IMG/VR virus record: IMGVR_UViG_2681813265_000006
Source of the DNA: a virus
Lineage: Duplodnaviria > Heunggongvirae > Uroviricota > Caudoviricetes
Direction: 5' to 3' (one strand)
DNA length: 8,341 nt
Below, piece after piece: positions 1 through 8,334 of the stretch. The position numbers were made by a program, and so were the translations under genes. The notes under the pieces are model-generated. The model did not search any database. It saw nothing but the letters and a program-made list of their open reading frames with translations, and had not been told where the DNA came from. Numbering within the stretch: position 1 is the stretch's first letter; every line of letters starts with the position of its first letter.

Positions 1-37
1 AACAAATGGTAGTGTCCGCTATTGCCAGTACACCTCA
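1..37. repeat. IR-L: left arm of a 37-bp perfect inverted repeat (partner at 8298..8334)
   Basis: Positions 1..37 are the exact reverse complement of 8298..8334. Each arm carries 5 nt of leader, an ATG and the first 10 codons (MVVSAIASTP) of an ORF reading into the window. Identity breaks at 38 / 8297; the arms may extend beyond the window edges. Confidence 0.9.
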
Positions 38-122
38 GGGTATAAGGGGTTATGGCCACCGGACTACCAAACGGCTGCCAGCCCTCTTTCAGTTTATGTG
101 TCAGCTTTTCCGCAAGATCTGA
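6..122 (+). pseudogene. Short ORF (38 aa, MVVSAIASTPQGIRGYGH...) that shares its first 10 codons with gene A (8099..8329) and then diverges; probably a truncated or recombinant remnant
   Basis: ATG at 6..8 inside IR-L, stop TGA at 120..122. Divergence from the gene A sequence begins exactly at the IR boundary (codon 11). Followed by a 12-bp perfect palindrome GGCGGCGCCGCC at 124..135. Confidence 0.3.
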
Positions 123-357
123 CGGCGGCGCCGCCCTGACAACATCATAGTGTTTAAATGCCATGGTTCTTTCCACCATCTGAAAAATAATTCTTTAAAA
201 TACCTGACATGTAATACAGAAAAAACACAAAACCATACCTTAAATAAAAACCTGATTATCAAGCAGATATGCATGGATAAACTACAAGACGAGATATAAA
301 CCACCCTGCATTTAAATAAACAATAAACAACATCAGAAAAATAATTCTGCTCTATGG

Positions 358-384
358 TTTACATTCAAAAATATCATTTATACT
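358..384 (+). promoter_or_regulatory. Putative sigma70 promoter for the ORF at 425..760
   Basis: TTTACA (358..363), 15-nt spacer, TATACT (379..384). An AAGGA Shine-Dalgarno lies at 414..418, 6 nt before the ATG at 425. The region is AT-rich, so promoter-like hexamers are expected by chance. Confidence 0.25.
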
Positions 385-424
385 TTTCAGAACATCACCA
401 GCAAGGCATAAACAAGGAAACTAA

Positions 425-760
425 ATGAAGTGGATTGTGATTGATACAGTTATCCAGCCATCATGCGGAATATCTTTTTCAGTCATATGGAGTAAAATAA
501 AATTAATAATCTGGTATCAATCGGATGCTTTCTTACCTCCTGAAAGTATATTTACACTGACTCACACAGGCATCATGCTCAATAACAAAGTGCTACCTGT
601 AACCATTTACAACGTAGTACCATTCAATAAAACATTCTGGAATTCAATCAAAAATAGCCAGGAATGCCCTACAAATACAGATAACGTATTGAATGAATGC
701 TTTAATAACCGTTGCACTCTGCAAATATGTCCTTATGGACTAAAACAACAAAGTCCATAA
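425..760 (+). CDS. Hypothetical 111-aa Cys-containing protein encoded in an AT-rich island, on the strand opposite to all phage genes
   Basis: 111-codon open frame in markedly AT-rich DNA (where stop codons are frequent), with a good SD (AAGGA, 6-nt spacer) and a candidate promoter. No family recognised by eye. Confidence 0.35.
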
Positions 761-794
761 GGAGTTTACTCACATCTGACAAAATCAATATAAA

Positions 795-816
795 CAGCCC
801 CTCCGGAGAGGGGCTG
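795..816 (-). terminator. Perfect 9-bp-stem hairpin (CAGCCCCTC-cgga-GAGGGGCTG), terminator-like for minus-strand transcripts
   Basis: Stem 795..803 / 808..816, loop CGGA. On the minus strand it is followed by a U-rich stretch (GUUUAUAUUGAUUUUG); on the plus strand no U tract follows. The 3' arm is the first bases of repeat R2 copy A. Confidence 0.35.
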
Positions 817-1022
817 GAGAGTGGCGCTATGTGCCATTGCATGGTGCCGGGTGCCTCCCGGTGAATTCAGTACCAGCACCTGAATCCGCGATTATCCCAT
901 ATACCTACTCGCTGATTGCCCCTCCGCACAGGGGGATTCACCATGCCAGTTTCTTTTAACAAACTCCCCGCAAACCAGACAACAGTCAACCGCCTGAATT
1001 GTGAAGTATTTAAAAATTTCTC
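811..1022. repeat. R2 copy A: ~212-bp direct repeat (partner at 2136..2347)
   Basis: Offset of exactly 1325 bp between copies. One mismatch in the first ~175 bp, about 6 mismatches in the last ~40 bp. Contains hairpins and a conserved SD + ATG (943). Confidence 0.85.
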
Positions 1023-1207
1023 CCGCTAACTGATACCCGGCTAACAGTCTGGCGTTTTCTTTTTCAGCAACGGGAAAGCAACAACCACCACACCCGCCAC
1101 CAGCACACCGTCAGCCAGCACTGACATTATCCGGCTGCTGCAATGCCATTCACAAAAACAGTAAGCAATCACTTTTTACCGTAACAGGTGATAATCCAGA
1201 TATGTAT

Positions 1208-1534
1208 CTACCCCAGATGAGTAATCCGAAGTTCATCCATACCACAGGTCCTGGCTATTCTGTTGTACTCCTGAACAAGAGCAAATAATTCTGAATTAGC
1301 AACCATGAACTCATCGCAAACCCTCTGTATAGCATCACTATTCAGAATAATAACGTCTCTTCCCGAAAGACGATCAGGAGTACAGAACAAAACTGTCAAA
1401 CGGCTGAAGGCCTTTGCTCGTGCTGCATTGACTATATCAATACGCTGCCTAAGGATGAAACACCCCGACGCCTCATCAATATTCACTCTACCCACACCAT
1501 ATGAATGATAAATATTTAATGCTGAAAAAACCAT
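1208..1534 (-). CDS. Hypothetical protein, 108 aa from ATG 1534 (117 aa if the TTG at 1561 is used); unrecognised cargo ORF downstream of tRNA copy 1
   Basis: Longest ORF in the 650-bp block (1023..1671) that is absent from the second module copy. Weak SD. The TTG-start version has a hydrophobic N-terminus (IECLLYGLMVFSALNIY). No family recognised. Confidence 0.3.
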   Translation of the reverse strand: MVFSALNIYHSYGVGRVNIDEASGCFILRQRIDIVNAARAKAFSRLTVLFCTPDRLSGRDVIILNSDAIQRVCDEFMVANSELFALVQEYNRIARTCGMDELRITHLG

Positions 1535-1671
1535 TAGACCGTATAACAAACACTCAATCAATACTTAACAGAACTTTTATTTTTGACAAACATAAAATAT
1601 TTTCAACAATATCCTGAGCCAGGTATATTTCAGTATAAGGCTCTGCCGGAAGGAATCTGGAAGAATGAATA

Positions 1672-1748
1672 TGGCGCGCTGTACTGGATTCGAACCAGTG
1701 ACCGATTGCTTAGAAGGCAATTGCTCTGTCCGGCTGAGCTAACAACGC
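1672..1748 (-). tRNA. argO: tRNA-Arg (anticodon UCU), copy 1
   Basis: Reverse complement folds as a cloverleaf: acceptor GCGUUGU/ACAGCGC (U4-G69 wobble), anticodon loop CUUCUAA, T-loop UUCGAAU, 3' GCCA. Third gene of an ileZ-argN-argO-type cluster as in Stx phages. Confidence 0.85.
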
Positions 1749-1761
1749 TGAATACCGATAA

Positions 1762-1842
1762 TGGACCGCCATCGGGGACCCGCCCCCGCACCAACAACCC
1801 TGTTATCGTGTCGTCTGCTCTTCCTGATAAGCTAATGGCGGT
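1762..1842 (-). pseudogene. Degenerate tRNA-Arg(UCG)-like gene (argN remnant), copy 1
   Basis: The 5' acceptor/D-arm and the 3' acceptor end match the intact copy at 2467..2543, but the central ~35 nt (anticodon arm, variable region and T-loop) are replaced by unrelated sequence. No canonical anticodon stem or T-loop can be drawn. Confidence 0.55.
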
Positions 1843-1848
1843 TTGTGA

Positions 1849-1924
1849 TGGTGGCCCTTGCTGGATTTGAACCAGCGACCTGGCGATTATGAGTCGCTCG
1901 CTCTCACCACTGAGCTAAAGGGCC
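1849..1924 (-). tRNA. ileZ: tRNA-Ile2 (anticodon CAU, ileX-like, lysidine type), copy 1
   Basis: Cloverleaf with anticodon loop CUCAUAA and T-loop UUCAAAU. Near-identical in sequence to E. coli ileX/ileY as I remember them. Identical to copy 2. Confidence 0.85.
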
Positions 1925-1961
1925 GGGAGCAGAATAATAACGGTCCGTAATTAATTCCGCA
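1925..1961 (-). promoter_or_regulatory. Putative promoter of tRNA cluster copy 1
   Basis: Minus strand: -35 TTGCGG (1957..1962), 17-nt spacer, -10 TATTAT (1934..1939), about 8 nt before the tRNA-Ile 5' end. Homologous to 2627..2664 upstream of copy 2. Confidence 0.4.
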
Positions 1962-1962
1962 A

Positions 1963-1987
1963 TAAAAAACCCGCTCGGCGGCGGGTT
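1963..1987 (-). terminator. Duplicate copy of the late terminator tR'
   Basis: Minus-strand hairpin AACCCGC-cgccga-GCGGGUU followed by U6; same sequence as 4193..4217. Confidence 0.7.
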
Positions 1988-2034
1988 GTAGAAACTCTTC
2001 TAACGTCAGGCATAAAACGCCCATAGTTATGACG

Positions 2035-2062
2035 AATTTACCACAGATTCCGGAAAAATCAA
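2035..2062 (-). promoter_or_regulatory. Duplicate copy of the late promoter PR'
   Basis: -35 TTGATT (2057..2062), 16-nt spacer, extended -10 TGGTAAATT (2035..2043). The initial transcribed sequence has AACTAT where the genuine copy has AACGAT. Confidence 0.6.
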
Positions 2063-2135
2063 CCTAGTTACCTTTTTTAACTGCCGCTCAGCCCATGCTT
2101 CTTCAATATCAAACCGAGTCACCAGCGCATCATAA
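2063..2135 (-). pseudogene. Fragment of the Q 3' end (last ~24 codons) fused to R2; remnant from recombination or duplication
   Basis: About 97% identical to 4301..4373 (Q C-terminal codons plus stop region). It lacks the 8-bp tandem duplication present in the intact gene. Homology ends abruptly at 2135/2136 where R2 copy B begins. Confidence 0.8.
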
Positions 2136-2347
2136 GGGCTGGAGAGTGGCGCTATGTGCCATTGCATGATGCCGGGTGCCTCCCGGTGAATTCAGTACCA
2201 GCACCTGAATCCGCGATTATCCCATATACCTACTCGCTGATTGCCCCTCCGCACAGGGGGATTCACCATGCCAGTTTCTTTTAACAAACTCCCCGCAAAA
2301 CAGACAACTGTCAACCGTCTGAATTGTGAGACATTTAAAAAAAAGGC
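2136..2347. repeat. R2 copy B (partner at 811..1022)
   Basis: See copy A. Begins at the junction with the Q fragment; its other end overlaps the tRNA-cluster terminator. Confidence 0.85.
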
Positions 2348-2362
2348 CCGCAAAAGCGAGCC
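2337..2362 (-). terminator. Rho-independent terminator downstream of tRNA cluster copy 2
   Basis: Minus-strand RNA GGCUCGC-UUUU-GCGGGCC (7-bp stem with one U-G pair) followed by U8. The plus-strand equivalent would have a C-A mismatch and no U tract. Confidence 0.7.
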
Positions 2363-2376
2363 AGGGAAAATAAGTG

Positions 2377-2453
2377 TGGCGCGTTGTACTGGATTCGAAC
2401 CAGTGACCGATTGCTTAGAAGGCAATTGCTCTGTCCGGCTGAGCTAACAACGC
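2377..2453 (-). tRNA. argO: tRNA-Arg (anticodon UCU), copy 2
   Basis: Same cloverleaf as copy 1 but with U4-A69 Watson-Crick instead of U4-G69. Confidence 0.85.
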
Positions 2454-2466
2454 ATGATGCAGATAA

Positions 2467-2543
2467 TGGACCGCCATCGGGGACTTGAACCCCGCGCAGC
2501 CAGCTTCGAAGGCTGGCGCTCTTTCCTGATGAGCTAATGGCGG
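2467..2543 (-). tRNA. argN: tRNA-Arg (anticodon UCG), intact
   Basis: Acceptor CCGCCAU/AUGGCGG, D-stem GCUC/GAGC, anticodon stem CCAGC/GCUGG with loop CUUCGAA, T-arm CGGGG-UUCAAGU-CCCCG, 3' UCCA. Confidence 0.8.
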
Positions 2544-2550
2544 TATGTGA

Positions 2551-2626
2551 TGGTGGCCCTTGCTGGATTTGAACCAGCGACCTGGCGATTATGAGTCGCT
2601 CGCTCTCACCACTGAGCTAAAGGGCC
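2551..2626 (-). tRNA. ileZ: tRNA-Ile2 (anticodon CAU, ileX-like), copy 2
   Basis: Identical to 1849..1924. Confidence 0.85.
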
Positions 2627-2664
2627 GGGAGCCGCATAATAACGACGCGTAATTAATTCTTCAA
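2627..2664 (-). promoter_or_regulatory. Putative promoter of tRNA cluster copy 2
   Basis: -35 TTGAAG (2659..2664), 17-nt spacer, -10 TATTAT (2636..2641); directly abuts the methyltransferase stop codon. Confidence 0.4.
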
Positions 2665-2666
2665 TA

Positions 2667-3725
2667 TCATCCGTTCTGGCTGACTAAATCCTGTACTTCC
2701 CGAACCGTCTGCTCAAAACGTTCAGTCTCCAGCTCAACGCCAATTGCACGACGCCCGAGCGCCAGTGCCGCTTTCACTGTCGAACCCAACCCCATGAAAA
2801 AATCTGCAATCAGGTCACCCGGACGACTGCTAGCGCTGATTATCTGCTGCAGCATTTCTGCCGGTTTTTCGCACGGATGTTTCCCGGGATAGAACTGCAC
2901 CGGTTTATGCGTCCACACATCGGTATACGGCACCTGCACCGTCACGCCAAAATACCGCCGCAGATGTTTATATTCACTCAGCAGCTCCGCATACTGCCGG
3001 TTCAGTGAGGTATACGTATCCACCAGCTGGTGGTGGAGCTTTTCCAGTTCACCACGCCGATGCTTCTCTTCTGCCACCCGGGCAAACAGCGCCTGTAATT
3101 TCAGATAATCGCTTTCATTCGGCAACTGCCACTGACCGGCACTGAACCAGTGCGACACCATGTTTTTCTTTCCTGTGGCATCTGCAATCTGTTTTGCCGT
3201 TATCCCCAGGGCAGCTCGCGCATCACGAAAGTAAGAAATCAGCGGGGCCATCACATGCTGTTTCAGTGCACTGCCCTTCGCCGCATACCCGGCATCTTTC
3301 GGACGATACGGCCCCTGATAATGTTCCGCGAACAGAATGCGCTCTGTGGCGGGGAAATACGCCCGCAGGCTTTCCTTGTTGCATCCGTTCCAGCGTCCGG
3401 ACGGCTTCGCCCAGATAATATGGTTCAGCACACTGAAGCGTTCACGCATCATGATTTCGATATCAGATGCCAGGCGATGACCACAGAACAGGTAAAGACT
3501 TCCGGCAGGTTTCAGCACCCGCCAGAACTGCGCCAGACACTGGTCCAGCCACTTCAGGTAATCATCGTCGCCCTTCCACTGGTTATCCCAGCCCTCAGGC
3601 TTCACTTTAAAGTACGGCGGGTCCGTGACTATCAGGTCAACAGAATTTTCGGGTAACGACCGGATAAATTCCAGGCAGTCGGCGTTGATTAACTCACAAC
3701 TGGATATTTTTACAGTATTAAGCAT
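2667..3725 (-). CDS. Orphan DNA N6-adenine methyltransferase, beta class, prophage-encoded (352 aa)
   Basis: DLIVTDPPYF (motif IV, DPPY) near the N-terminus and FFMGLGSTVKAALALGRRAIGVE (FxGxG motif I, SAM-binding) near the C-terminus; the order IV then I indicates the beta class. The central region has an HTH-like segment (GITAKQIADATGKK...). No restriction endonuclease partner is present in the window. Confidence 0.8.
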   Translation of the reverse strand: MLNTVKISSCELINADCLEFIRSLPENSVDLIVTDPPYFKVKPEGWDNQWKGDDDYLKWLDQCLAQFWRVLKPAGSLYLFCGHRLASDIEIMMRERFSVLNHIIWAKPSGRWNGCNKESLRAYFPATERILFAEHYQGPYRPKDAGYAAKGSALKQHVMAPLISYFRDARAALGITAKQIADATGKKNMVSHWFSAGQWQLPNESDYLKLQALFARVAEEKHRRGELEKLHHQLVDTYTSLNRQYAELLSEYKHLRRYFGVTVQVPYTDVWTHKPVQFYPGKHPCEKPAEMLQQIISASSRPGDLIADFFMGLGSTVKAALALGRRAIGVELETERFEQTVREVQDLVSQNG

Positions 3726-3818
3726 GGATCATTAAGCCTGTCTCTGATAGGCTCATTCTGCTTTTGCGCAAAGCAGTGGGCCTGAGGTTTGCTTGTGAAC
3801 CCAACGCATGAGCAGATG

Positions 3819-3847
3819 GCTGGTGGGTGCCCCTAACACCCACCAGC
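3819..3847. other. Perfect 11-bp-stem palindromic hairpin (GCTGGTGGGTG-cccctaa-CACCCACCAGC) in the methyltransferase leader
   Basis: Seen directly in the sequence; no U tract on either side. A second near-perfect palindrome lies at 3758..3776 (CTGCTTTtgcgcAAAGCAG). Confidence 0.6.
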
Positions 3848-3860
3848 CGCCCATTTACCA

Positions 3861-3889
3861 CAAATAAAAAAGCCTTCACTGCGGAAGGC
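3861..3889 (-). terminator. Rho-independent terminator downstream of the small HTH ORF
   Basis: Minus-strand RNA GCCUUC-CGCAGU-GAAGGC followed by UUUUUUAUUU. The HTH ORF stop codon lies inside the hairpin. Confidence 0.6.
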
Positions 3890-4073
3890 GTCTGTAACAA
3901 CCGAACTGATAGTCTGCCAGACCCGCCATAACCAGCTGGGTCAGTATTAACTGGCAGCGTTCGCGTGAAAGGTAAGTATTCTGCGCTATCTCCCCGACTG
4001 TCGCCGGTTCGGTAACGCTTAATTCATTAAACACCACTCTGGCGGTTTCTGTCATATCCTGCTGTTTTAGCAT
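3876..4073 (-). CDS. Small (65 aa) putative winged-helix / HTH DNA-binding protein
   Basis: Good SD (AAGGA, 6-nt spacer). The segment TVGEIAQNTYLSRERCQLILTQLVMAGLADYQ resembles the recognition helix and wing of small wHTH regulators. First gene of the HTH-methyltransferase cassette. Confidence 0.45.
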   Translation of the reverse strand: MLKQQDMTETARVVFNELSVTEPATVGEIAQNTYLSRERCQLILTQLVMAGLADYQFGCYRRLPQ

Positions 4074-4192
4074 GTCTTTTCCTTTTCCGGTTAACGTGAC
4101 ACACCAATAACTCTTGTCGAAAAAGCCAGCAAGCTGAAAGACAGGTATTCACCGCCACCAGCGCGTTTACTGTACTGACGCGATTTCAGTCA

Positions 4193-4217
4193 TAAAAAAC
4201 CCGCTCGGCGGCGGGTT
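4193..4217 (-). terminator. tR' late terminator ending a short PR' transcript of about 65 nt
   Basis: Minus-strand hairpin AACCCGC-cgccga-GCGGGUU followed by UUUUUUAU, about 40 nt downstream of the predicted PR' start. Confidence 0.75.
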
Positions 4218-4252
4218 GTAGAAACTCTTCTAACGTCAGGCATAAAACGCCC

Positions 4253-4292
4253 ATCGTTATGACGAATTTACCACAGATTCCGGAAAAATCAA
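4253..4292 (-). promoter_or_regulatory. Late promoter PR' with sigma70-dependent pause element (qut region)
   Basis: -35 TTGATT (4287..4292), 16-nt spacer, extended -10 TGGTAAATT (4265..4273), then AACGAT at about +1..+6 (4253..4258). This is the same -10-like pause-inducing hexamer as in lambda PR'. Located immediately downstream of the Q stop codon. Confidence 0.7.
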
Positions 4293-4297
4293 CCTTG

Positions 4298-5119
4298 TTA
4301 CCTAGTTACCTTTTTTAACTGCCGCTCAGCCCATGCTTCTTCAATATCAAACCGGGTCACCAGCGCATCATAAAATTTCTTAACTGTTTTTTCCCATGAC
4401 GCGCGTGTTATCTGGTTTGTCACCTCGCATATAGCATTAAATGCCTCCGTTGATGGTAGTCTTTCATAGCCACGACCACCACAACGCTGGCAGTCTCTGA
4501 TAACAGGCATACCACGTTTTACCGACTCTTCACGATGAATGGCGACACCACGCCCACGGCAATCCTTACAGGCGGTGGAAACCTCACCCTTTCCGCCACA
4601 CTCCGGACAGGCAACTTTTACCACCTCCCTGACTTTTTTCCATTCTTCCCAGTAAGACGGATACACACCTTTCGTACACTTTGCCCATACCGGCGGCTTA
4701 CCATCCGGATACTGGATCTTGTTTGTAAAAACCTCGCTTTCAATAAATTTTTTTCCGTGACAGCAGGGGCACTGTTTTTTGCTCGCCGCGCTACGGGCAT
4801 AATCTTCAAACGCATACGAAGCCATAATACGCATCACTGCCGGTTTTATTTCTGCCGGGAGTTTTCTTAACGCCGCCACGCGATCACACCGACTGAGTGC
4901 ATATTCTGTCAGCAATTCTGTTGCCCGCTCTCTGTCATTCATACTAATGCCCATTTTCCCAAGGAACGCAGAAACCCCCATCTCAGCCCGATTCTGTGTC
5001 ATGCCCTGCGCGGCCATCACATCAGTGATACTCAGCGCATCTTTCGACGTTGAGGCCGATGCATCAGTCAGGCCGGGGGATTTTGGGGAGTAGTATTTCG
5101 GTAAATCTTCCAGTTTCAT
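4298..5119 (-). CDS. Q: Late-gene antiterminator Q (273 aa)
   Basis: Position immediately upstream of a lambda-like PR'/tR' unit. Several CxxC pairs (CPCC, CPEC, CKDC, CQRC) consistent with Q-family zinc fingers. ATGA overlap with rusA. Confidence 0.8.
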   Translation of the reverse strand: MKLEDLPKYYSPKSPGLTDASASTSKDALSITDVMAAQGMTQNRAEMGVSAFLGKMGISMNDRERATELLTEYALSRCDRVAALRKLPAEIKPAVMRIMASYAFEDYARSAASKKQCPCCHGKKFIESEVFTNKIQYPDGKPPVWAKCTKGVYPSYWEEWKKVREVVKVACPECGGKGEVSTACKDCRGRGVAIHREESVKRGMPVIRDCQRCGGRGYERLPSTEAFNAICEVTNQITRASWEKTVKKFYDALVTRFDIEEAWAERQLKKVTR

Positions 5120-5496
5120 TTTTTGACCTGCCCTTCAAGCATTATGGGATAAATCTTCACCCCCAGACGTCCACCAGATACTGGCTGAGCACGAACGATA
5201 TTGATTTCATCAAACTGCTCATCGTCCATTAGCAACCCCGCATGCGTCAGCGCATCCAGCGGCGCTTTCAGAATATTGTCCAGGTCACGGCGGCGCTTAT
5301 CCGGTGGTTCTGCAATAATTTTTATTGCCAACCTTCCGGACAGGCTTAATTTCAGCCGCTGCTGGCGAACAATAAGCGCCACTGCCCGGCGATAACGCTC
5401 CCCGGCTTTTGATACAAAATATGTGCTGCCACGACGACGCCAGTAAGTGTTCACCGTCGGCGGGTAAGGTAAAACAAATTCTATGCGCTCGGTCAT
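5116..5496 (-). CDS. rusA: Holliday-junction resolvase RusA (126 aa)
   Basis: N-terminus MTERIEFVLPYPPTVNTYW and the acidic catalytic region RRRDLDNILKAPLDAL...LLMDDEQ match RusA. Its start abuts the stop of the upstream ORF (TAAATG). Confidence 0.85.
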   Translation of the reverse strand: MTERIEFVLPYPPTVNTYWRRRGSTYFVSKAGERYRRAVALIVRQQRLKLSLSGRLAIKIIAEPPDKRRRDLDNILKAPLDALTHAGLLMDDEQFDEINIVRAQPVSGGRLGVKIYPIMLEGQVKK

Positions 5497-6555
5497 TTAT
5501 GCTTTCCACTTCAGAACACCCGAATTTCTCGCGTGCATTAAAAAACGAATCAGCAACAACAGCTGACTGCCGTGTTTCTCTTCAAAATCTTTTACTCCGG
5601 CATGTAGTTCGTTACGGCATTTACGGCATAACGGAATAACAAACAAATCATCAGCCTTTGTTCCCATCCCTCCCAGTCCATGACCAATGATGTGATGCGG
5701 ATCATCTGCCTGATTGCCACACGTCATGCATTTCTGCGTTTTTACCCAGCGCGTGTATACAGGCATCTCTTCCCGTTGTGATTTCTGGCGCTGGAGATAC
5801 TGAGCCGGTGACTCCGGATCAACGGCAATGCTGACCACCGTCTTTTCCTGTGGTGGGTTCTGTTGCTGGTGGACGTGAGGCAGTAACGCAATATTTTTTG
5901 TGCGCTGCTTCAGTATGCTGGTGGCTGTCTGCTCTCCCGGTATGATGTCGCTTTCACTGTACACAGAGCGAATTTTTTCCGCACGCAACCCCAGCGAACG
6001 ACGTAATACCGCTTCCGGTAGCGCGTCCGCCACCTGATTGCGGACCGCCCACCAGGATAATTCAGCCAGAGATAATTCACGCTCCTGCGTACCGCTTATT
6101 GCGTGACCGATGACGTCAATCATCCATGCTGACAGGTTTTGATGAGCAAGTTGCTCGAGTGATTCGGATGTCTGGTCACGCAGCTGGTTGTCGCAGTGCC
6201 AGCACAACACCATTGCGCCGGTACCATAACGGTGAATGACGGTTTCGCTGTGATGATAATCGCCGTGTGGCCACTGGCAGGATTTAATATGGCGCAACAG
6301 CCAGTCAGACAATGCACCAGCACCACCAGCAGCACGAATCACCCGTGCGTTACTGAAAAACGGCAGCAATGTTTTGTCTTCCACCAGCGGCTGGCGAGCG
6401 GCAGGAACGACCCCGGACGGCAGATTACGCATGCTTTTTGGTTCCGGCTCCACCAGTATTCTGCCGTTATGGAATGCTGACATTGATTCACGGCCTGGCT
6501 TAACGATAACCAGACCGAGTTCCGGTACCAGAACAGGTCGAAGTAATACCCGCAC
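5497..6555 (-). CDS. Prophage nin-region protein, YdfU-like (DUF968) with a C-terminal Cys/His-rich HNH-like motif
   Basis: Synteny hokD-rem-(this ORF)-Q as in the Qin prophage. C-terminal CMTCGNQADDPHH...CRKCRNELH resembles NinG/HNH zinc motifs. The start is ambiguous: GTG 6555 has GGAGG 4 nt upstream; the alternative ATG at 6483 gives 328 aa. Confidence 0.55.
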   Translation of the reverse strand: MRVLLRPVLVPELGLVIVKPGRESMSAFHNGRILVEPEPKSMRNLPSGVVPAARQPLVEDKTLLPFFSNARVIRAAGGAGALSDWLLRHIKSCQWPHGDYHHSETVIHRYGTGAMVLCWHCDNQLRDQTSESLEQLAHQNLSAWMIDVIGHAISGTQERELSLAELSWWAVRNQVADALPEAVLRRSLGLRAEKIRSVYSESDIIPGEQTATSILKQRTKNIALLPHVHQQQNPPQEKTVVSIAVDPESPAQYLQRQKSQREEMPVYTRWVKTQKCMTCGNQADDPHHIIGHGLGGMGTKADDLFVIPLCRKCRNELHAGVKDFEEKHGSQLLLLIRFLMHARNSGVLKWKA

Positions 6556-6630
6556 ATTACCTCCAGATCCGTTGCTGGAATGTGCGGGACGGACGCGTTG
6601 GCCGTTCGGAGTAAGGGAGCCTGACGGAGA

Positions 6631-6912
6631 TTATCCAGTGACGGTAGTCGAGGCTAAGGGCTTTTTTAACCTCGCATCCGCGCCTGCGGTAACACTGAAT
6701 GAGCCATTCGGCCTGTTCTTCAGTGCATGGGGGATGCTGGTACCAATCAGATTTAAATGCGTGAGAGCGCCGCCCGTGCCTGCTGGCAAAGACGGCTGAA
6801 TTATCAGAATTGTGTAGTCTGGAAGGCAGTGGCTGACAATAGCGCCATTCTCAACGCGCACAGTATAGAGGCCATCTTCACTAAAAATTTCACGTAATTC
6901 TTCGATTTTCAT
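6631..6912 (-). CDS. Rem-like small ORF (93 aa) at the position of Qin rem
   Basis: ATG at 6912 preceded by GGAAGGA with an 8-nt spacer. The N-terminal 25 residues look protein-like; the remainder is low-complexity and overlaps a long stop-free alternative frame (see findings). Confidence 0.4.
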   Translation of the reverse strand: MKIEELREIFSEDGLYTVRVENGAIVSHCLPDYTILIIQPSLPAGTGGALTHLNLIGTSIPHALKNRPNGSFSVTAGADARLKKPLASTTVTG

Positions 6913-7033
6913 CAACAGAATCCTTCCAGATAAATAGCACTCCCCTGTTCGGGGTCCATCCCTCTTCTCCCTGCGCGCTACTTAAGTATTTTTGATTCTA
7001 TTCCGGCACCATCTAAAACTTCAAACGCGTTGA

Positions 7034-7064
7034 AAATAAAAACAAAAACCCGCCGAAGCGGGTT
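7034..7064 (-). terminator. Rho-independent terminator of the hok transcript
   Basis: Minus-strand AACCCGC-UUCG-GCGGGUU followed by UUUUGUUUUUAUUUU. A GAAA-tetraloop stem-loop (plus coordinates 7104..7125) lies just after the hok stop. Confidence 0.75.
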
Positions 7065-7132
7065 AAGTGTGGGTGCATTGAGGATGCCTGACCCATCAGA
7101 GGTGGCGAGGGATTTCTCCCCCGCCTGGTCTC

Positions 7133-7288
7133 TTACTCCTCAGGTTCGTAAGCTGTGAAGACAGCGACCTCCGTCTGGCCGGTTCGAATTCGTACCTCGC
7201 AGAGGTCTTTCCTCGTTACCAGTGCCGTCACTATGACGGTTAAACAGATGACGATCAGGGCGATTAACATCGCCTTTTGCTGCTTCAT
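7133..7288 (-). CDS. hokD: Hok-family type I toxin, HokD/RelF-like (51 aa)
   Basis: Translation MKQQKAMLIALIVICLTVIVTALVTRKDLCEVRIRTGQTEVAVFTAYEPEE matches HokD as I remember it. SD AAGGAG lies 9 nt upstream. The ORF-track version (7133..7345) adds an in-frame 19-codon extension. Confidence 0.85.
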   Translation of the reverse strand: MKQQKAMLIALIVICLTVIVTALVTRKDLCEVRIRTGQTEVAVFTAYEPEE

Positions 7289-7499
7289 AGCCTGCTTCTC
7301 CTTGCCTTTCGGCACGTAAGAGGCTAACCTAGATTTGCCGTTCATAGATTGAGCCTCAGATTAATGTTAAGCGTCTTGCCGGACGCGTAATGTTAACTGG
7401 GGCTTTTCTCTATCTGCCTTTTGGTGTTCATGCCTGAGACAGATAGCCTCAAGCACCCGCTGCAATTCTACTTAACTCTCCTTTTCCCGCAAACCGTTT

Positions 7500-7583
7500 T
7501 TATCCCCAGCGGCAAATCGAATACACCACCAGCGCCACCGCCATCGCAATTCCTACCGTTGTTAATGCTTCAGGCCAGGTCAT
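7500..7583 (-). CDS. 27-aa hydrophobic peptide ([27 protein letters not shown]), translationally coupled to gene C
   Basis: Its ATG overlaps the gene C stop (ATGA). A single predicted transmembrane helix. Below the ORF-track size cutoff, found by manual translation. Confidence 0.4.
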
Positions 7584-7924
7584 CGTAAAATATCCTCCAC
7601 GCTTATCAGTCCGTTCCGCTCCAGATAACTCATCGCCTTATCCGGTAATTTGCAGTCTGGCTTCGCTTTCCTCAGTTGCCAGGTTAACTGCTTTACCAGC
7701 ATGGTTAACTCATCGACCAGACGCTGATATCCCACTGGTTTGTATTCATGCAATTTACCGGCTGGCTCTGCTGCCAGCGATACCAGTGCGATTTCCAGAA
7801 CAGCAATATCCATCTTATATGTGCGGATGATGTCATGGTCGATTGTGCCCGGTATGCACAGTCTCTGTGCTTCAATAGTCTCCTCTGCGTGAGCTATTAA
7901 CTGCTCTCTGGTAAAAGTCGTCAT
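7580..7924 (-). CDS. Hypothetical nin-region protein C (114 aa), paralogous to gene B
   Basis: Its ATG overlaps the gene B stop (ATGA). Shares MTTxTxE at the N-terminus and an A(L)xSLxAEP motif with gene B. Confidence 0.6.
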
Positions 7925-8088
7925 GCCGTAGCCCCTTCTTGATATTTTTCAAACCAGAACACAACCGGCTCTGCTTCCAGCGATGCCAGCGCAATCCGTG
8001 CCAGTTCCATTTGTTCACCACGGGTAAGCCCGTTTTCAAGCGGGTTTTTAATGAACAATTCAATACGTTCTTTGGTAATAGTGGTCAT
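7921..8088 (-). CDS. Hypothetical nin-region protein B (55 aa), short paralog of gene C
   Basis: ATG at 8088 preceded by AAGGAG (6-nt spacer), which overlaps the gene A stop. Translation [55 protein letters not shown]. Missed by the ORF track because it is under 60 aa; the track's 7872..8063 ORF is the wrong frame. Confidence 0.55.
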
Positions 8089-8098
8089 GTGTTACTCC

Positions 8099-8329
8099 TT
8101 AACCCGCAGTGCTTTCAACTGATGAGGGGAACAAAATCTTTTCATCAAACCCTGCATTCATATCATGAACAGCAACACACCAATCCATCGACGAACGATT
8201 ATCAAGAGCCTCCATGATTTCATCCATGCGGCGTAGGTCATACAGGTAAATGCTTTTATCGCCAATGGTGTAAAAGCCAATTTTTTTCGGTGATGGATGA
8301 GGTGTACTGGCAATAGCGGACACTACCAT
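8099..8329 (-). CDS. Hypothetical protein A (at least 76 aa), first gene of the coupled A-B-C-D operon; its start lies within IR-R
   Basis: The ORF reads from the ATG at 8329. There is no in-frame stop in the 4 codons upstream before the window edge, so the true start may lie outside the window. No family recognised. Confidence 0.45.
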   Translation of the reverse strand: MVVSAIASTPHPSPKKIGFYTIGDKSIYLYDLRRMDEIMEALDNRSSMDWCVAVHDMNAGFDEKILFPSSVESTAG

Positions 8330-8334
8330 TTGTT
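8298..8334. repeat. IR-R: right arm of the 37-bp perfect inverted repeat
   Basis: Exact reverse complement of 1..37; contains the ATG (8327..8329, minus strand) of CDS 8099..8329. Confidence 0.9.

Follow-up and report, generated by a model that had tools for sequence, protein, structure and literature searches.

The 1525-bp block at positions 2667-4191 of the window, the 8,341-nucleotide stretch of Caudoviricetes DNA that we analysed (IMG/VR record IMGVR_UViG_2681813265_000006), is likely to be a three-part lambdoid late-operon cassette made up of a winged-helix gene, a leader RNA and an M.EcoGII-type methyltransferase gene, whose expression would depend on Q and be gated at translation and whose role would be anti-restriction. 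Judged by its sequence, the enzyme itself is already known, an M.EcoGII-type non-specific adenine methyltransferase, and the cassette is a common, known prophage add-on. What looks new is a strongly conserved folded leader that, with a winged-helix partner gene, may gate translation of the methyltransferase. All coordinates refer to the + strand of the window; the genes read on the minus strand (Table 1).

Table 1. Features of the cassette and its surroundings, in order of transcription, with the empty junction of module 1 last.
Feature	Coordinates	Strand	Basis
PR'-like late promoter just past the Q stop: TTGATT (4292-4287), 16-nt spacer, TGgTAAATT (extended -10, 4270-4265)	4265..4292	-	read from sequence
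tR'-like intrinsic terminator, AACCCGCCGCCGAGCGGGTT then T run (scan site 4217-4198)	4192..4217	-	terminator scan; copy at 1968-1987
Promoter-like conserved element 5' of small ORF: TTGCTG, 17 nt, TATTGG; core AGAGTTA	4097..4133	-	16-locus alignment
65-aa winged-helix protein gene (phrog_331); good Shine-Dalgarno AAGGAA, ~4078-4083	3876..4073	-	homology and structure prediction
Intrinsic terminator overlapping small ORF stop (scan site 3889-3872)	3865..3889	-	terminator scan
Conserved structured leader RNA of the methyltransferase (~135 nt)	3726..3862	-	alignments, folds, covariation
Leader segment 0, AUGGGC	3849-3854	-	alignment and folding
Leader P2 hairpin	3818-3848	-	alignment and folding
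Leader segment 1, UGCUCAUG	3807-3814	-	alignment and folding
Leader segment 2, UCACAAGCA	3790-3798	-	alignment and folding
Leader P1 3' strand, GCCCA	3777-3781	-	alignment and folding
Leader P4 hairpin	3758-3776	-	alignment and folding
Leader P5	3750-3755 with 3733-3738	-	alignment and folding
GCUUAAUGAUC, directly 5' of the methyltransferase AUG	3727-3737	-	alignment and folding
352-aa beta-class N6-adenine DNA methyltransferase, M.EcoGI/M.EcoGII family	2667..3725	-	Pfam and sequence comparison
tRNA promoter-like site, TTGAAG-17-TATTAT; -35 hexamer at the cassette's downstream edge	2636..2664	-	promoter scan and junction alignment
Three tRNA genes that follow the cassette: anticodon CAT, Arg-TCG, Arg-TCT	2377..2626	-	tRNA prediction; terminator 2362-2345
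Empty-site junction, module 1: TAT between tR' T tract and tRNA promoter -35	1962..1964	-	repeats and junction alignment

Comparison of the window with itself delimited the block. Positions 1821-1964 are repeated at 2523-2666 (94%) and positions 1955-2073 at 4185-4303 (96%); since these repeats bracket both junctions, block 2667-4191 is the sole difference between the empty junction in module 1 and the occupied junction in module 2. On the minus strand it runs from the terminator after the Q antiterminator gene, abutting the T tract of that tR'-like terminator, exactly to the tRNA promoter-like site, whose counterpart in module 1 is TTGCGG, 17 nt, TATTAT at 1934-1962. In the junction alignment (minus strand, a slash marking the junction) the empty sites in module 1 and in E. 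coli 042 read ...GGGTTTTTTAT/TGCGGAATTAATTAC..., and the occupied sites in module 2, an ST131 prophage and the Stx2a phage EH1910 read ...GGGTTTTTTAT/GACTGAAATC...[cassette]...GGATGATAT/TGAAGAATTAATTAC..., with the ambiguity of the cassette boundary limited to the shared TAT. The earlier note had placed the insertion precisely between tR' and the tRNA promoter, and this alignment of occupied with empty junctions bears it out. The comparison of methyltransferase-bearing and methyltransferase-lacking relatives that it proposed (EH1910 and the ST131 prophage versus E. coli 042) confirms the boundaries, and the methyltransferase stop codon (2667-2669) does lie at the cassette edge, 0-3 nt from it. 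The second-module join in the window (a truncated Q 3' end plus an STnc100 copy, 2135/2136) was absent from 5,426 complete E. coli genomes and from IMG/VR; because E. coli 042 has the identical empty junction, the empty-site comparison is independent of this join.

The cassette is annotated in hundreds of phages, among them hundreds of Stx2 phages together with P27, SfV, mEp460 and ST131 prophages. The gene order in Stx2 phages is Q, small ORF, methyltransferase, tRNAs and stx2AB; in SfV, mEp460, cdtI and phiNP the cassette lies directly before the lysis genes (the holin gene where annotated). An equivalent terminator is found 5' of it in every related locus. The unit stands behind Q genes of at least three lengths and annotations and before either tRNAs or a holin gene, and so the cassette moves as a module. 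At this site the block was probably gained and not lost from an empty junction, in a comparison of gain with precise loss that is unrooted. That the empty junction of module 1 and E. coli 042 is instead a derived precise deletion, not the ancestral state, seems rather unlikely to us, although losses do occur: PhiR5_1 and L016 lost the methyltransferase and tRNAs through GCTGGTGG(C)GGGTG microhomology with a DUF3927 gene, the methyltransferase is replaced in L033 and has an internal deletion in L032, and the cassette ends have TAT in common and a weak TGAA similarity. In every documented loss, however, something of the cassette stays behind, be it the small ORF, a piece of the leader or the 3' end of the methyltransferase gene. 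The empty junction retains no such remnant, and its terminator T tract and -35 hexamer are both undamaged; the occurrence of the unit behind at least three Q types and before tRNAs or a holin gene also argues for a moving module.

The methyltransferase matches PF01555 with 144.1 bits (cutoff 26.7, E 7.9e-42) over profile positions 1-219 of 221, and it carries TDPPYF at residues 34-39 and FFMGLG at residues 309-314. This is the beta-class motif order, so the earlier assignment to beta-class N6-adenine methyltransferases is upheld by the Pfam match together with an N-terminal DPPY and a C-terminal FxGxG. Its relatives in the PDB are RsrI, CcrM, MboIIA and DpnA; M.EcoGII is absent from the PDB, where the nearest solved relatives are distant beta-class enzymes. 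Against M.EcoGII, 324/349 residues are identical, a figure of about 93% that is approximate because the M.EcoGII sequence (PMC11551740 Table S1) was machine-read from a PDF and contains visible reading errors. One substitution, S313L, falls in motif I and changes FMGSG to FMGLG, which formally keeps FxGxG; among the homologues in the fetched loci this position is Ser in 193 of 194 and Leu in one. Lying inside the SAM-binding motif, S313L could weaken or kill the enzyme.

The M.EcoGII work describes methylation of adenine in any sequence context, no detectable methylation by M.EcoGI or M.EcoGII in lysogens and toxicity of M.EcoGII when expressed, and it points to phage 1720a-02 as encoding a highly similar enzyme (PMC5778455); we found this phage to be 94.8% identical to the cassette at the DNA level. 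Homologues at about 93% similarity have been catalogued as non-specific, with no methylation attributable to them detected in lysogens (PMC6602927), and a review groups M.EcoGII with Mom, both being silent and toxic (PMC12707154). Given methylation without regard to context by an enzyme about 93% identical, the methylome experiment suggested in the earlier note is not expected to reveal a target motif. A restriction endonuclease partner was found neither in the window nor in the related loci that we examined in phages and genomes, in agreement with the description of the methyltransferase as solitary.

The small ORF had been described as a wHTH gene with its own terminator, and both parts of this description hold: AlphaFold2 predicts a winged helix (pLDDT 90.7, topology H-H-H-beta-beta), and a terminator overlaps the stop codon. 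Among phages, the stem of that terminator shows covariation, UA being replaced by GC or CG; an equivalent hairpin was not evident in the Proteus and Providencia loci. We collected 334 homologues of the 65-aa protein. Its helix 3 (RCQLILTQL) does not vary between genera. In NCBI the homologues carry the name of TrmB family regulators; the match of the window protein to Pfam TrmB (PF01978) reaches 18 bits (E 0.0026), below the cutoff of 25.6, and NCBIfam gave no match. PADLOC likewise gave no match to the small protein. Fold searches of PDB and BFVD for a specific function returned generic winged helices, all with E > 1e-3: IclR DNA-binding domains with TM-scores up to 0.84 and, also among the Foldseek matches, MarR DNA-binding domains, O-methyltransferase dimerisation domains, RNA-binding SelB domains and Z-alpha domains. 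The net charge calculated from the sequence is about -1, atypical of a nucleic-acid binder, and only two Cys are conserved in close relatives.

Small ORF and methyltransferase occur together in 32 of the 34 species-level loci retrieved through the small protein alone, with the methyltransferase about 150-190 nt downstream. Two scans of IMG/VR found the pair in 80/85 and 76/76 loci, the methyltransferase-based scan covering close relatives only (93-100%) and thus adding linkage counts but no diversity. Leader and methyltransferase are present without the small ORF in about 5% of loci, so the small protein is not strictly required.

The region between the two genes is the best conserved part of the cassette, with a median nucleotide identity to the window of 81%; the corresponding value of the methyltransferase gene is 72% and that of the small ORF 68%. 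It contains one inverted repeat with perfect 12-nt arms and a 7-nt spacer (3818-3829/3837-3848; 0 matches in 200 shuffles) and another with perfect 7-nt arms and a 5-nt spacer (3758-3764/3770-3776). These had been reported as two long perfect palindromes; the arms are indeed perfect, but both are stem-loops with loops and not strict palindromes, and the stem of the second has only 7 bp. In structure A, to which the alignment had been fitted, 84% of cells are paired compared with 32-46% in slid controls, and 19 pairs changed on both sides compared with 5-9, the phylogenetic relatedness of the leader sequences inflating shuffle statistics. In structure B, 89% of cells are paired. Compensatory changes between E. 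coli, Proteus and Plesiomonas support two mutually exclusive predicted pairings, one of which covers the methyltransferase start. The start-occluding helix changes from AAGC/GCUU in E. coli to GGGC/GCCC in Plesiomonas and GGAC/GUUC in Proteus.

The methyltransferase start has no Shine-Dalgarno sequence. In minimum-energy folds of single sequences the UGAUC 5' of the AUG is paired in 6/6 diverse homologues, its partner being segment 2 in five of them and an upstream segment in Plesiomonas; the alternative fold lies 1-6 kcal/mol above the minimum, where unconstrained minimum-energy folds (B-like) are compared with constrained A folds. All-against-all column covariation within the close-relative alignment A4 was dominated by clade structure, with pair 54:78 alone standing out, so sequences from Proteus, Providencia and Plesiomonas were needed. 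We also considered a known RNA family for the leader: Rfam 15, run on the whole window and in a permissive scan of 3690-3900, gave nothing credible on the sense strand (nothing at E < 0.5), with no gathering score on either strand and a best match, P26 on the opposite strand, of 24 bits where 36 are needed. A literature search found nothing on a leader or regulator of this cassette, and the passages of the published M.EcoGII work that were consulted (PMC5778455) say nothing of a conserved leader or of the small ORF 5' of the gene.

Upstream of the cassette, Pfam identifies Q (PF03589), RusA and DUF968. The PR'-like promoter has an identical copy in module 1 (2035-2062); it scores below the 9/12 threshold of the promoter scan, and we infer its function from its place after Q. 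Given the Q gene, the PR'-like promoter and the tR'-like terminator upstream, Q-dependent late expression and anti-restriction are the natural reading. Within the cassette, the element 5' of the small ORF keeps TTGC and CAGAGTTA in an alignment of 16 loci spanning E. coli, Proteus and Plesiomonas; it is without a canonical -10 and was not called by the promoter scan. The leader 5' end has another conserved promoter-like element, TGTGnnAAAT. Such elements could give transcription independent of Q. Candidate promoter elements within the cassette include TTGCTG-N17-TATTGG and TGTGGTAAAT. No terminator 3' of the methyltransferase was found in the window; SfV has one annotated there. Of the tRNA genes that follow, the one with the CAT anticodon is annotated in relatives as tRNA-Ile, ileZ.

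Q antitermination is an established mechanism in lambdoid phages, and by analogy with it we propose the following course of events. In the lysogen, PR'-like transcripts would end at the tR'-like terminator, and any read-through would be stopped by the second terminator, behind the small ORF. On induction, Q-modified RNA polymerase would pass both terminators and transcribe the methyltransferase, the tRNAs and beyond. In the most stable predicted fold of the leader, the UGAUC and GCUU directly 5' of the AUG form base pairs with the upstream G(G/A/U)UCACAAGC, a segment that has NGCUCAUG as an alternative partner, and covariation backs both pairings; the leader would then act as a translational gate that is off by default. 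A trigger might open this gate, restricting synthesis of the toxic enzyme to a late stage and a limited amount; speculative candidates are the co-inherited 65-aa protein, or translation from the invariant AUG of segment 0. Once made, the enzyme would methylate the adenines of replicating phage DNA without sequence preference, if the activity can be transferred at about 93% identity, and the outcome may be broad protection from restriction in the next host. The methyltransferase probably shields phage DNA from restriction enzymes. More tentatively, and with a fair amount of doubt, the leader may be an undescribed cis-regulatory RNA switch that closes the SD-less start by pairing UGAUC with a GGAUCAC resembling the 16S rRNA 3' end, and that the 65-aa protein opens. 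Alternatively, the 65-aa protein could sense m6A or RNA and provide feedback. The leader and the protein would then make up a self-contained timer that controls when a toxic anti-restriction enzyme is translated, and lambdoid prophages across Enterobacterales would share it.

The 65-aa protein might instead be a DNA-binding transcription factor, a C protein or a repressor or activator of a cassette-internal promoter, with the stem-loops or the TTGCTG...AGAGTTA element as operators. Its winged helix is predicted with high confidence and has IclR and MarR DNA-binding domains among its top structural matches, the NCBI name points the same way, helix 3 and the promoter-like element 5' of its own gene are invariant across genera, and linkage to the methyltransferase is tight. 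We nevertheless consider this unlikely. The TrmB score stays under the Pfam cutoff, the Foldseek matches all have E > 1e-3 and extend to winged helices without a DNA-binding function (the O-methyltransferase, SelB and Z-alpha domains), the net charge is slightly negative, and there is no endonuclease for a C-protein circuit to time. The hairpins, moreover, are maintained in relatives with bulges and by G-U wobbles that are valid only in the sense RNA, so that DNA dyad operators are not favoured, and the leader stays with the methyltransferase where the small ORF is missing, as in Flotzy. The candidate dedicated regulator of the earlier note therefore keeps the support of its tight linkage as a partner of the methyltransferase, but we do not favour the palindromes as its DNA targets. 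That the leader is conserved for a DNA-level reason (a recombination joint between mosaic modules or a protein-binding site) or because it encodes a small peptide, and not as a regulatory RNA, we think improbable. Mosaic breakpoints do lie inside the leader, at the P2 left arm, and a short ORF (MGGWW...) starts at the invariant ATG. Its frame is not maintained, however: Klebsiella-type leaders have a stop after 7 codons, a frameshift disrupts it in Flotzy and in P27-type leaders, and the Proteus version differs. The helices are held by compensatory and G-U changes, many of the G-U pairs being possible on the sense strand only.

Orphan methyltransferases such as Dam and CcrM regulate gene expression, and promoter-like elements in the cassette could give some Q-independent expression; the methyltransferase might on these grounds act epigenetically in the lysogen, as an orphan enzyme regulating genes of the host or the prophage. 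This is very improbable in our judgement, as a non-specific enzyme cannot write a site-specific code, M.EcoGI, M.EcoGII and the ~93%-similar homologues give no detectable methylation in lysogens, M.EcoGII is toxic, and two terminators and a start that is SD-less and predicted to be occluded precede the gene. The earlier note had offered an anti-restriction or an epigenetic module expressed from PR' under Q; anti-restriction and Q control stand as the natural reading of the context, and the epigenetic role is unlikely, given the lysogen-silent homologues and, in this cassette, the two terminators and the predicted occluded start.

M.EcoGII is a widely used reagent, and many Shiga-toxin phages carry a gene of its family a short distance 5' of stx2. 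Little has been reported on how phages express such an enzyme without killing the host early, or on the real protection of virion DNA. Translational gating by the leader and the small protein, if real, would account for the silence in lysogen methylomes. It would also bring a regulatory RNA motif new to phage biology, perhaps together with a winged helix that binds RNA, and would point to a module with the potential to broaden the host range of Stx-converting and other lambdoid phages. Without such gating, the cassette is an ordinary, well-annotated prophage methyltransferase.

Among known systems, the closest are M.EcoGI and M.EcoGII from prophages of E. coli O104:H4 C227-11, as described by Murray et al. 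2018 (PMC5778455), which share with the window enzyme about 93% identity over the full length, the beta-class motif order and the prophage setting; M.EcoGII has 349 aa, whereas the window enzyme has 352 aa with another C-terminal tail and S313L. Like the lambdoid morons (stx and the tRNA genes of Stx phages), the cassette occupies the slot from Q/tR' to the lysis genes in the same orientation, is present or absent with a clean junction and lies behind differing Q types. Classical morons, however, have their own promoter and terminator, whereas the terminator of the cassette is internal, after the small ORF, and no strong promoter is seen in it, Q read-through being most likely. With C-protein type II restriction-modification systems it shares a small HTH-like gene ahead of a type II-like methyltransferase; it differs in that no endonuclease occurs in the related loci examined, the fold is a winged helix and not an Xre-type HTH, and a conserved C-box dyad was not found in the cassette.

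The translation start of Mu mom is sequestered in an RNA structure. The Mu com-mom operon resembles the cassette in this respect, computed only for the cassette, and in having a small protein gene directly upstream of the gene for a toxic adenine-modifying enzyme that is silent in lysogens and gives broad anti-restriction, a role that the cassette would share. The two are not homologous: Com is a zinc finger, and the cassette protein has a winged-helix fold and lacks a Cys4 site; Mom does not belong to the SAM-dependent methyltransferases; the two cassette genes have a terminator between them; and the cassette would be under Q antitermination, unlike Mu, which relies on C and Dam/OxyR. As an opener of the leader, the 65-aa protein would be a functional analogue of Mu Com on an unrelated fold, and the resemblance, taken as an analogy, is one of logic and not of membership.

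The window represents late-regulatory DNA of a lambdoid prophage, whose genes are read on the minus strand. Listed from the right-hand end, these are hok/sok, a DUF968/HNH-like gene, rusA and the Q antiterminator gene (273 aa; PF03589, E 1.6e-53); a short intergenic region separates Q from the cassette. Then come three tRNA genes and a copy of the STnc100 sRNA, and beyond these the truncated module 1, in which only the last 74 nt of Q remain, together with the same promoter and terminator, two tRNAs and a third that has decayed. Left of module 1 are a DUF3927 ORF, another STnc100 copy and an iraM-like gene on the opposite strand. The junctions of both window modules were aligned with those of E. 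coli 042, which lacks the methyltransferase, and of two cassette carriers, an ST131 prophage and Stx2a phage EH1910. In minus-strand orientation, GGGTTTTTTAT is followed directly by TGCGGAATTAATTAC at empty sites, and occupied sites read GGGTTTTTTAT, then GACTGAAATC, 1.5 kb ending in GGATGATAT, and then TGAAGAATTAATTAC; only TAT and a faint TGAA are common to both cassette ends. Direct repeats flank the cassette, and the tRNA promoter-like site starts at the junction with its -35 hexamer. The earlier note was accurate in placing this block precisely between tR', the terminator-like site after Q, and the tRNA promoter, with the methyltransferase stop codon at the cassette edge.

Positions of features in the window
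Feature	Position	Strand	Basis or detail
Tandem late-regulatory modules 1 and 2	1580-2135; 2136-4373		
STnc100 sRNA (RF02076), two copies	786-975; 2125-2300	minus	Rfam, 132 and 104 bits vs gathering score 47
Terminal inverted repeat, 37 nt	1-37; 8298-8334		perfect
Arg-TCG tRNA of module 2; module 1 counterpart	2454-2550; 1749-1848		
hokD-type toxin gene with sok antisense RNA, and adjacent isrK-like match	7133-7458; 7043-7124	minus	Rfam, 112 bits for hokD/sok
Direct repeats flanking the cassette	1821-1964/2523-2666; 1955-2073/4185-4303		94%; 96%
Terminator-like sites	4217-4198; 3889-3872	minus	scan
Promoter-like site (-35 hexamer)	2664-2636 (2664-2659)	minus	scan
Methyltransferase stop codon	2667-2669	minus	
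Methyltransferase codon 313	2785-2787	minus	
TTGCTG-N17-TATTGG element	4097-4133	minus	core AGAGTTA
Leader inverted repeats	3818-3848; 3758-3776		
Hairpin left arm; DUF3927 counterpart	3836-3848; 1095-1107		
GATC at methyltransferase start; pairing partner	3723-3731; 3795-3802		

Where the tandem modules meet, at 2135/2136, the 74-nt Q remnant runs straight into an STnc100 copy. No match to this junction was found among 5,426 complete E. coli genomes or in IMG/VR; it therefore reflects a rare rearrangement or else an assembly join. One STnc100 copy lies downstream of each tRNA cluster, the pair forming a 219-nt direct repeat, D1. The middle tRNA of module 2 has a diverged remnant as its module 1 counterpart, where ARAGORN found no tRNA; E. 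coli 042 and the ST131 prophage have only tRNA-Ile and tRNA-Arg annotated in this cluster. A weak isrK-like match (25.7 bits, under the gathering score) lies beside hokD/sok. Each arm of the terminal repeat is the 5' end of an ORF starting MVVSAIASTP, and E. coli genome matches end exactly within these arms (35-8297), suggesting a contig-end or repeat-boundary effect.

The methyltransferase matches PF01555 (E 8e-42) and has the beta-class motif order, with DPPY N-terminal and FxGxG C-terminal. It shares 324 of 349 residues with the M.EcoGII sequence printed in the supplement of PMC11551740, an identity (93%) that is approximate because that text was machine-read with a few reading errors. According to PMC5778455, M.EcoGII comes from a prophage of E. 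coli O104:H4 and methylates adenine non-specifically; it is silent in the lysogen and harmful if constitutively expressed. The authors name phage 1720a-02 as having a very similar enzyme. That phage shows 94.8% DNA identity to the cassette. Homologues in O111 STEC (~93% similarity) are listed as non-specific, and methylation due to them was not detected (PMC6602927). No endonuclease gene lies beside the cassette in the window or in any relative examined, and PADLOC detected only a type II methyltransferase, which upholds the view of a solitary enzyme. The accompanying proposal of a beta-class adenine methyltransferase, expressed late and acting against restriction, is right in outline, but missed the known M.EcoGI/M.EcoGII family. 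Because members of this family are non-specific, the target motif that was to be sought by methylome analysis is not expected, and the enzyme is unlikely to act epigenetically in the lysogen. At codon 313 the window copy has TTG (Leu) instead of the family-invariant TCG (Ser), changing FMGSG to FMGLG in the SAM-binding motif; among 194 homologues in the fetched loci, one other (L167) shares Leu-313, and judged by this substitution the enzyme of this copy may be impaired.

The methyltransferase is closely linked to the small ORF. A search using the small protein alone as query, with one genome per species, gave 34 loci from Escherichia albertii, Salmonella, Klebsiella, Citrobacter, Enterobacter, Mangrovibacter, Mixta, Proteus, Providencia and Plesiomonas. 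The methyltransferase (59-96% identity) begins ~150-190 nt downstream of the small ORF in 32 of them, the two exceptions being a locus truncated by a contig end and one that has lost the enzyme. Both genes are present in 80 of 85 IMG/VR loci selected by leader and in all 76 close methyltransferase relatives in IMG/VR; a few phages, e.g. Flotzy, have leader and methyltransferase with the small ORF absent.

The 150-nt spacer between the two genes is better conserved than either, its median nucleotide identity to the window being 81%, where the methyltransferase has 72% and the small ORF 68%. No Rfam family matched it, and a conserved ORF in the spacer was rejected from leader alignments. Two long perfect palindromes had been described here, with the 65-aa protein as candidate regulator to be assayed for binding to them, which amounts to reading them as operators. 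The inverted repeats are real, the one at 3818-3848 having 12-nt perfect arms and a 7-nt loop (0 matches in 200 shuffles) and the one at 3758-3776 having 7-nt arms and a 5-nt loop, but they are stem-loops, not strict palindromes, and the hairpins belong to the RNA: many leader pairs are G-U, possible in the sense-strand RNA only.

From 42 diverse leaders we derived a covariance model, to which 82 hits, 75 of them distinct, were realigned. Structure A consists of P1 (UGGGC/GCCCA), the 12-bp P2 hairpin, P3 (NGCUCAUG/CACAAGCN', with N:N' being U:A, C:G or A:U), P4 and P5. In this alignment of related sequences, which was also model-fitted, 84% of cells are paired versus 32-46% with partners slid, and two-sided changes occur in 19 pairs versus 5-9 in slid controls. 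P2 is rebuilt nearly base for base in Proteus (GACUGUAAAAGUG/CACCUUUACAGUC) and also in Plesiomonas. Structure B, which played no part in building the alignment, pairs AUGGGC (segment 0) with GCUCAU, and G(G/A/U)UCA-C-AAGC with GCUUAnUGAUC immediately before the AUG; 89% of its cells are paired, with the compensatory series AAGC/GCUU (E. coli), GGGC/GCCC (Plesiomonas) and GGAC/GUUC (Proteus). One segment covarying with two partners points to alternative pairings, of which such covariation is the signature. In single-sequence minimum-energy folds the UGAUC before the AUG is paired in six of six diverse homologues, with the start-occluding segment 2 (form B) in five and with an upstream segment in Plesiomonas; form A lies 1-6 kcal/mol above the minimum-energy fold. 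The methyltransferase start is without a Shine-Dalgarno sequence, but at -6 to -2 it has the invariant UGAUC, complementary to GAUCA of the 16S rRNA 3' end, a stretch that the start-occluding segment resembles. Comparison of these related leaders gives the helices good support, and from them we infer a switch function. In nearly every homologue seen, the methyltransferase ATG has a GATC (Dam) site 1 nt upstream, and GATCAC also occurs in the pairing partner in many relatives.

The small ORF, which has a good Shine-Dalgarno sequence, falls in phrog_331 (E 1e-37); 334 homologues, spread over the Enterobacterales, are named by NCBI as TrmB family or DprA-like winged helix; its match to Pfam TrmB is under cutoff. 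AlphaFold2 predicts a winged helix with three helices and two strands (pLDDT 90.7), and a terminator-like site is present, as expected of the winged-HTH ORF with its own terminator in the earlier note. Foldseek returned only generic winged-helix matches, all with E >1e-3: IclR and MarR DNA-binding domains, O-methyltransferase dimerisation domains, the SelB RNA-binding domain and viral Z-alpha domains. Comparison across genera shows an invariant third helix, RCQLILTQL(V/A)MAGL, and divergence of the remainder to 41% identity.

The cassette matches 292 phage records, often with tRNAs after it; these phages are mostly Stx2a/c/d-converting, with stx2AB after the tRNAs. The small ORF, spacer and methyltransferase stand immediately before the lysis genes (holin where annotated) in SfV, mEp460, cdtI and phiNP, and before tRNAs and stx2e in P27. 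The preceding Q genes are of about 120-126, 230-250 and 273 aa, and homology between loci often starts at the terminator hairpin. An extra gene lies between Q and the cassette in mEp460 and P27, followed by a second tR'-like terminator copy before the cassette (3522 and 4175-4238 in the mEp460 locus, L006; about 3490-3520 in the P27 locus, L011), which suggests that terminator copies are recombination joints for stacking modules in this slot.

The empty arrangement is common among E. coli genomes. Where the cassette was lost, remnants are left: in PhiR5_1 and L016 the small ORF survives with the leader's first 25 nt, fused into the DUF3927 gene via GCTGGTGG(C)GGGTG microhomology, another locus (L033) has the methyltransferase replaced and another (L032) has an internal deletion. 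Unlike these losses, the empty junction has no remnant, so that gain at this site is favoured over loss as the probable direction. The leader hairpin left arm, GCTGGTGGGTG, resembles GCTGGTGGCGGGTG within the DUF3927 gene, and in several phages (loci L003, L016) a deletion joins these two sites, removing methyltransferase and tRNAs and leaving the small ORF stranded.

The block is most economically read as an anti-restriction cassette that is expressed late, depends on Q and has three control layers. Transcription would reach it solely via antitermination through two terminators, the leader would hold off translation of the toxic enzyme until opened, and the enzyme would then methylate adenines of phage DNA with no sequence preference. 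Opening of the leader could be due to the small protein, or to a ribosome initiating at the invariant segment 0 AUG. The small protein could instead regulate by binding DNA at the TTGCTG...AGAGTTA element, which is conserved upstream of its own gene. This element is kept from E. coli to Plesiomonas, always directly after an intrinsic terminator, and could be a non-canonical promoter or binding site; cassettes of the SfV and Klebsiella types have CAGAGTTAC again in their methyltransferase leader.

As a widespread, annotated feature of Stx phages, a point that the earlier note missed, the cassette is itself ordinary, and the parts worth following are the conserved leader and the small partner gene. 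Although the cassette has no homology to Mu com-mom and its small protein differs in fold, and it is therefore not a member of that system, com-mom is the closest analogy to the late anti-restriction cassette in logic.
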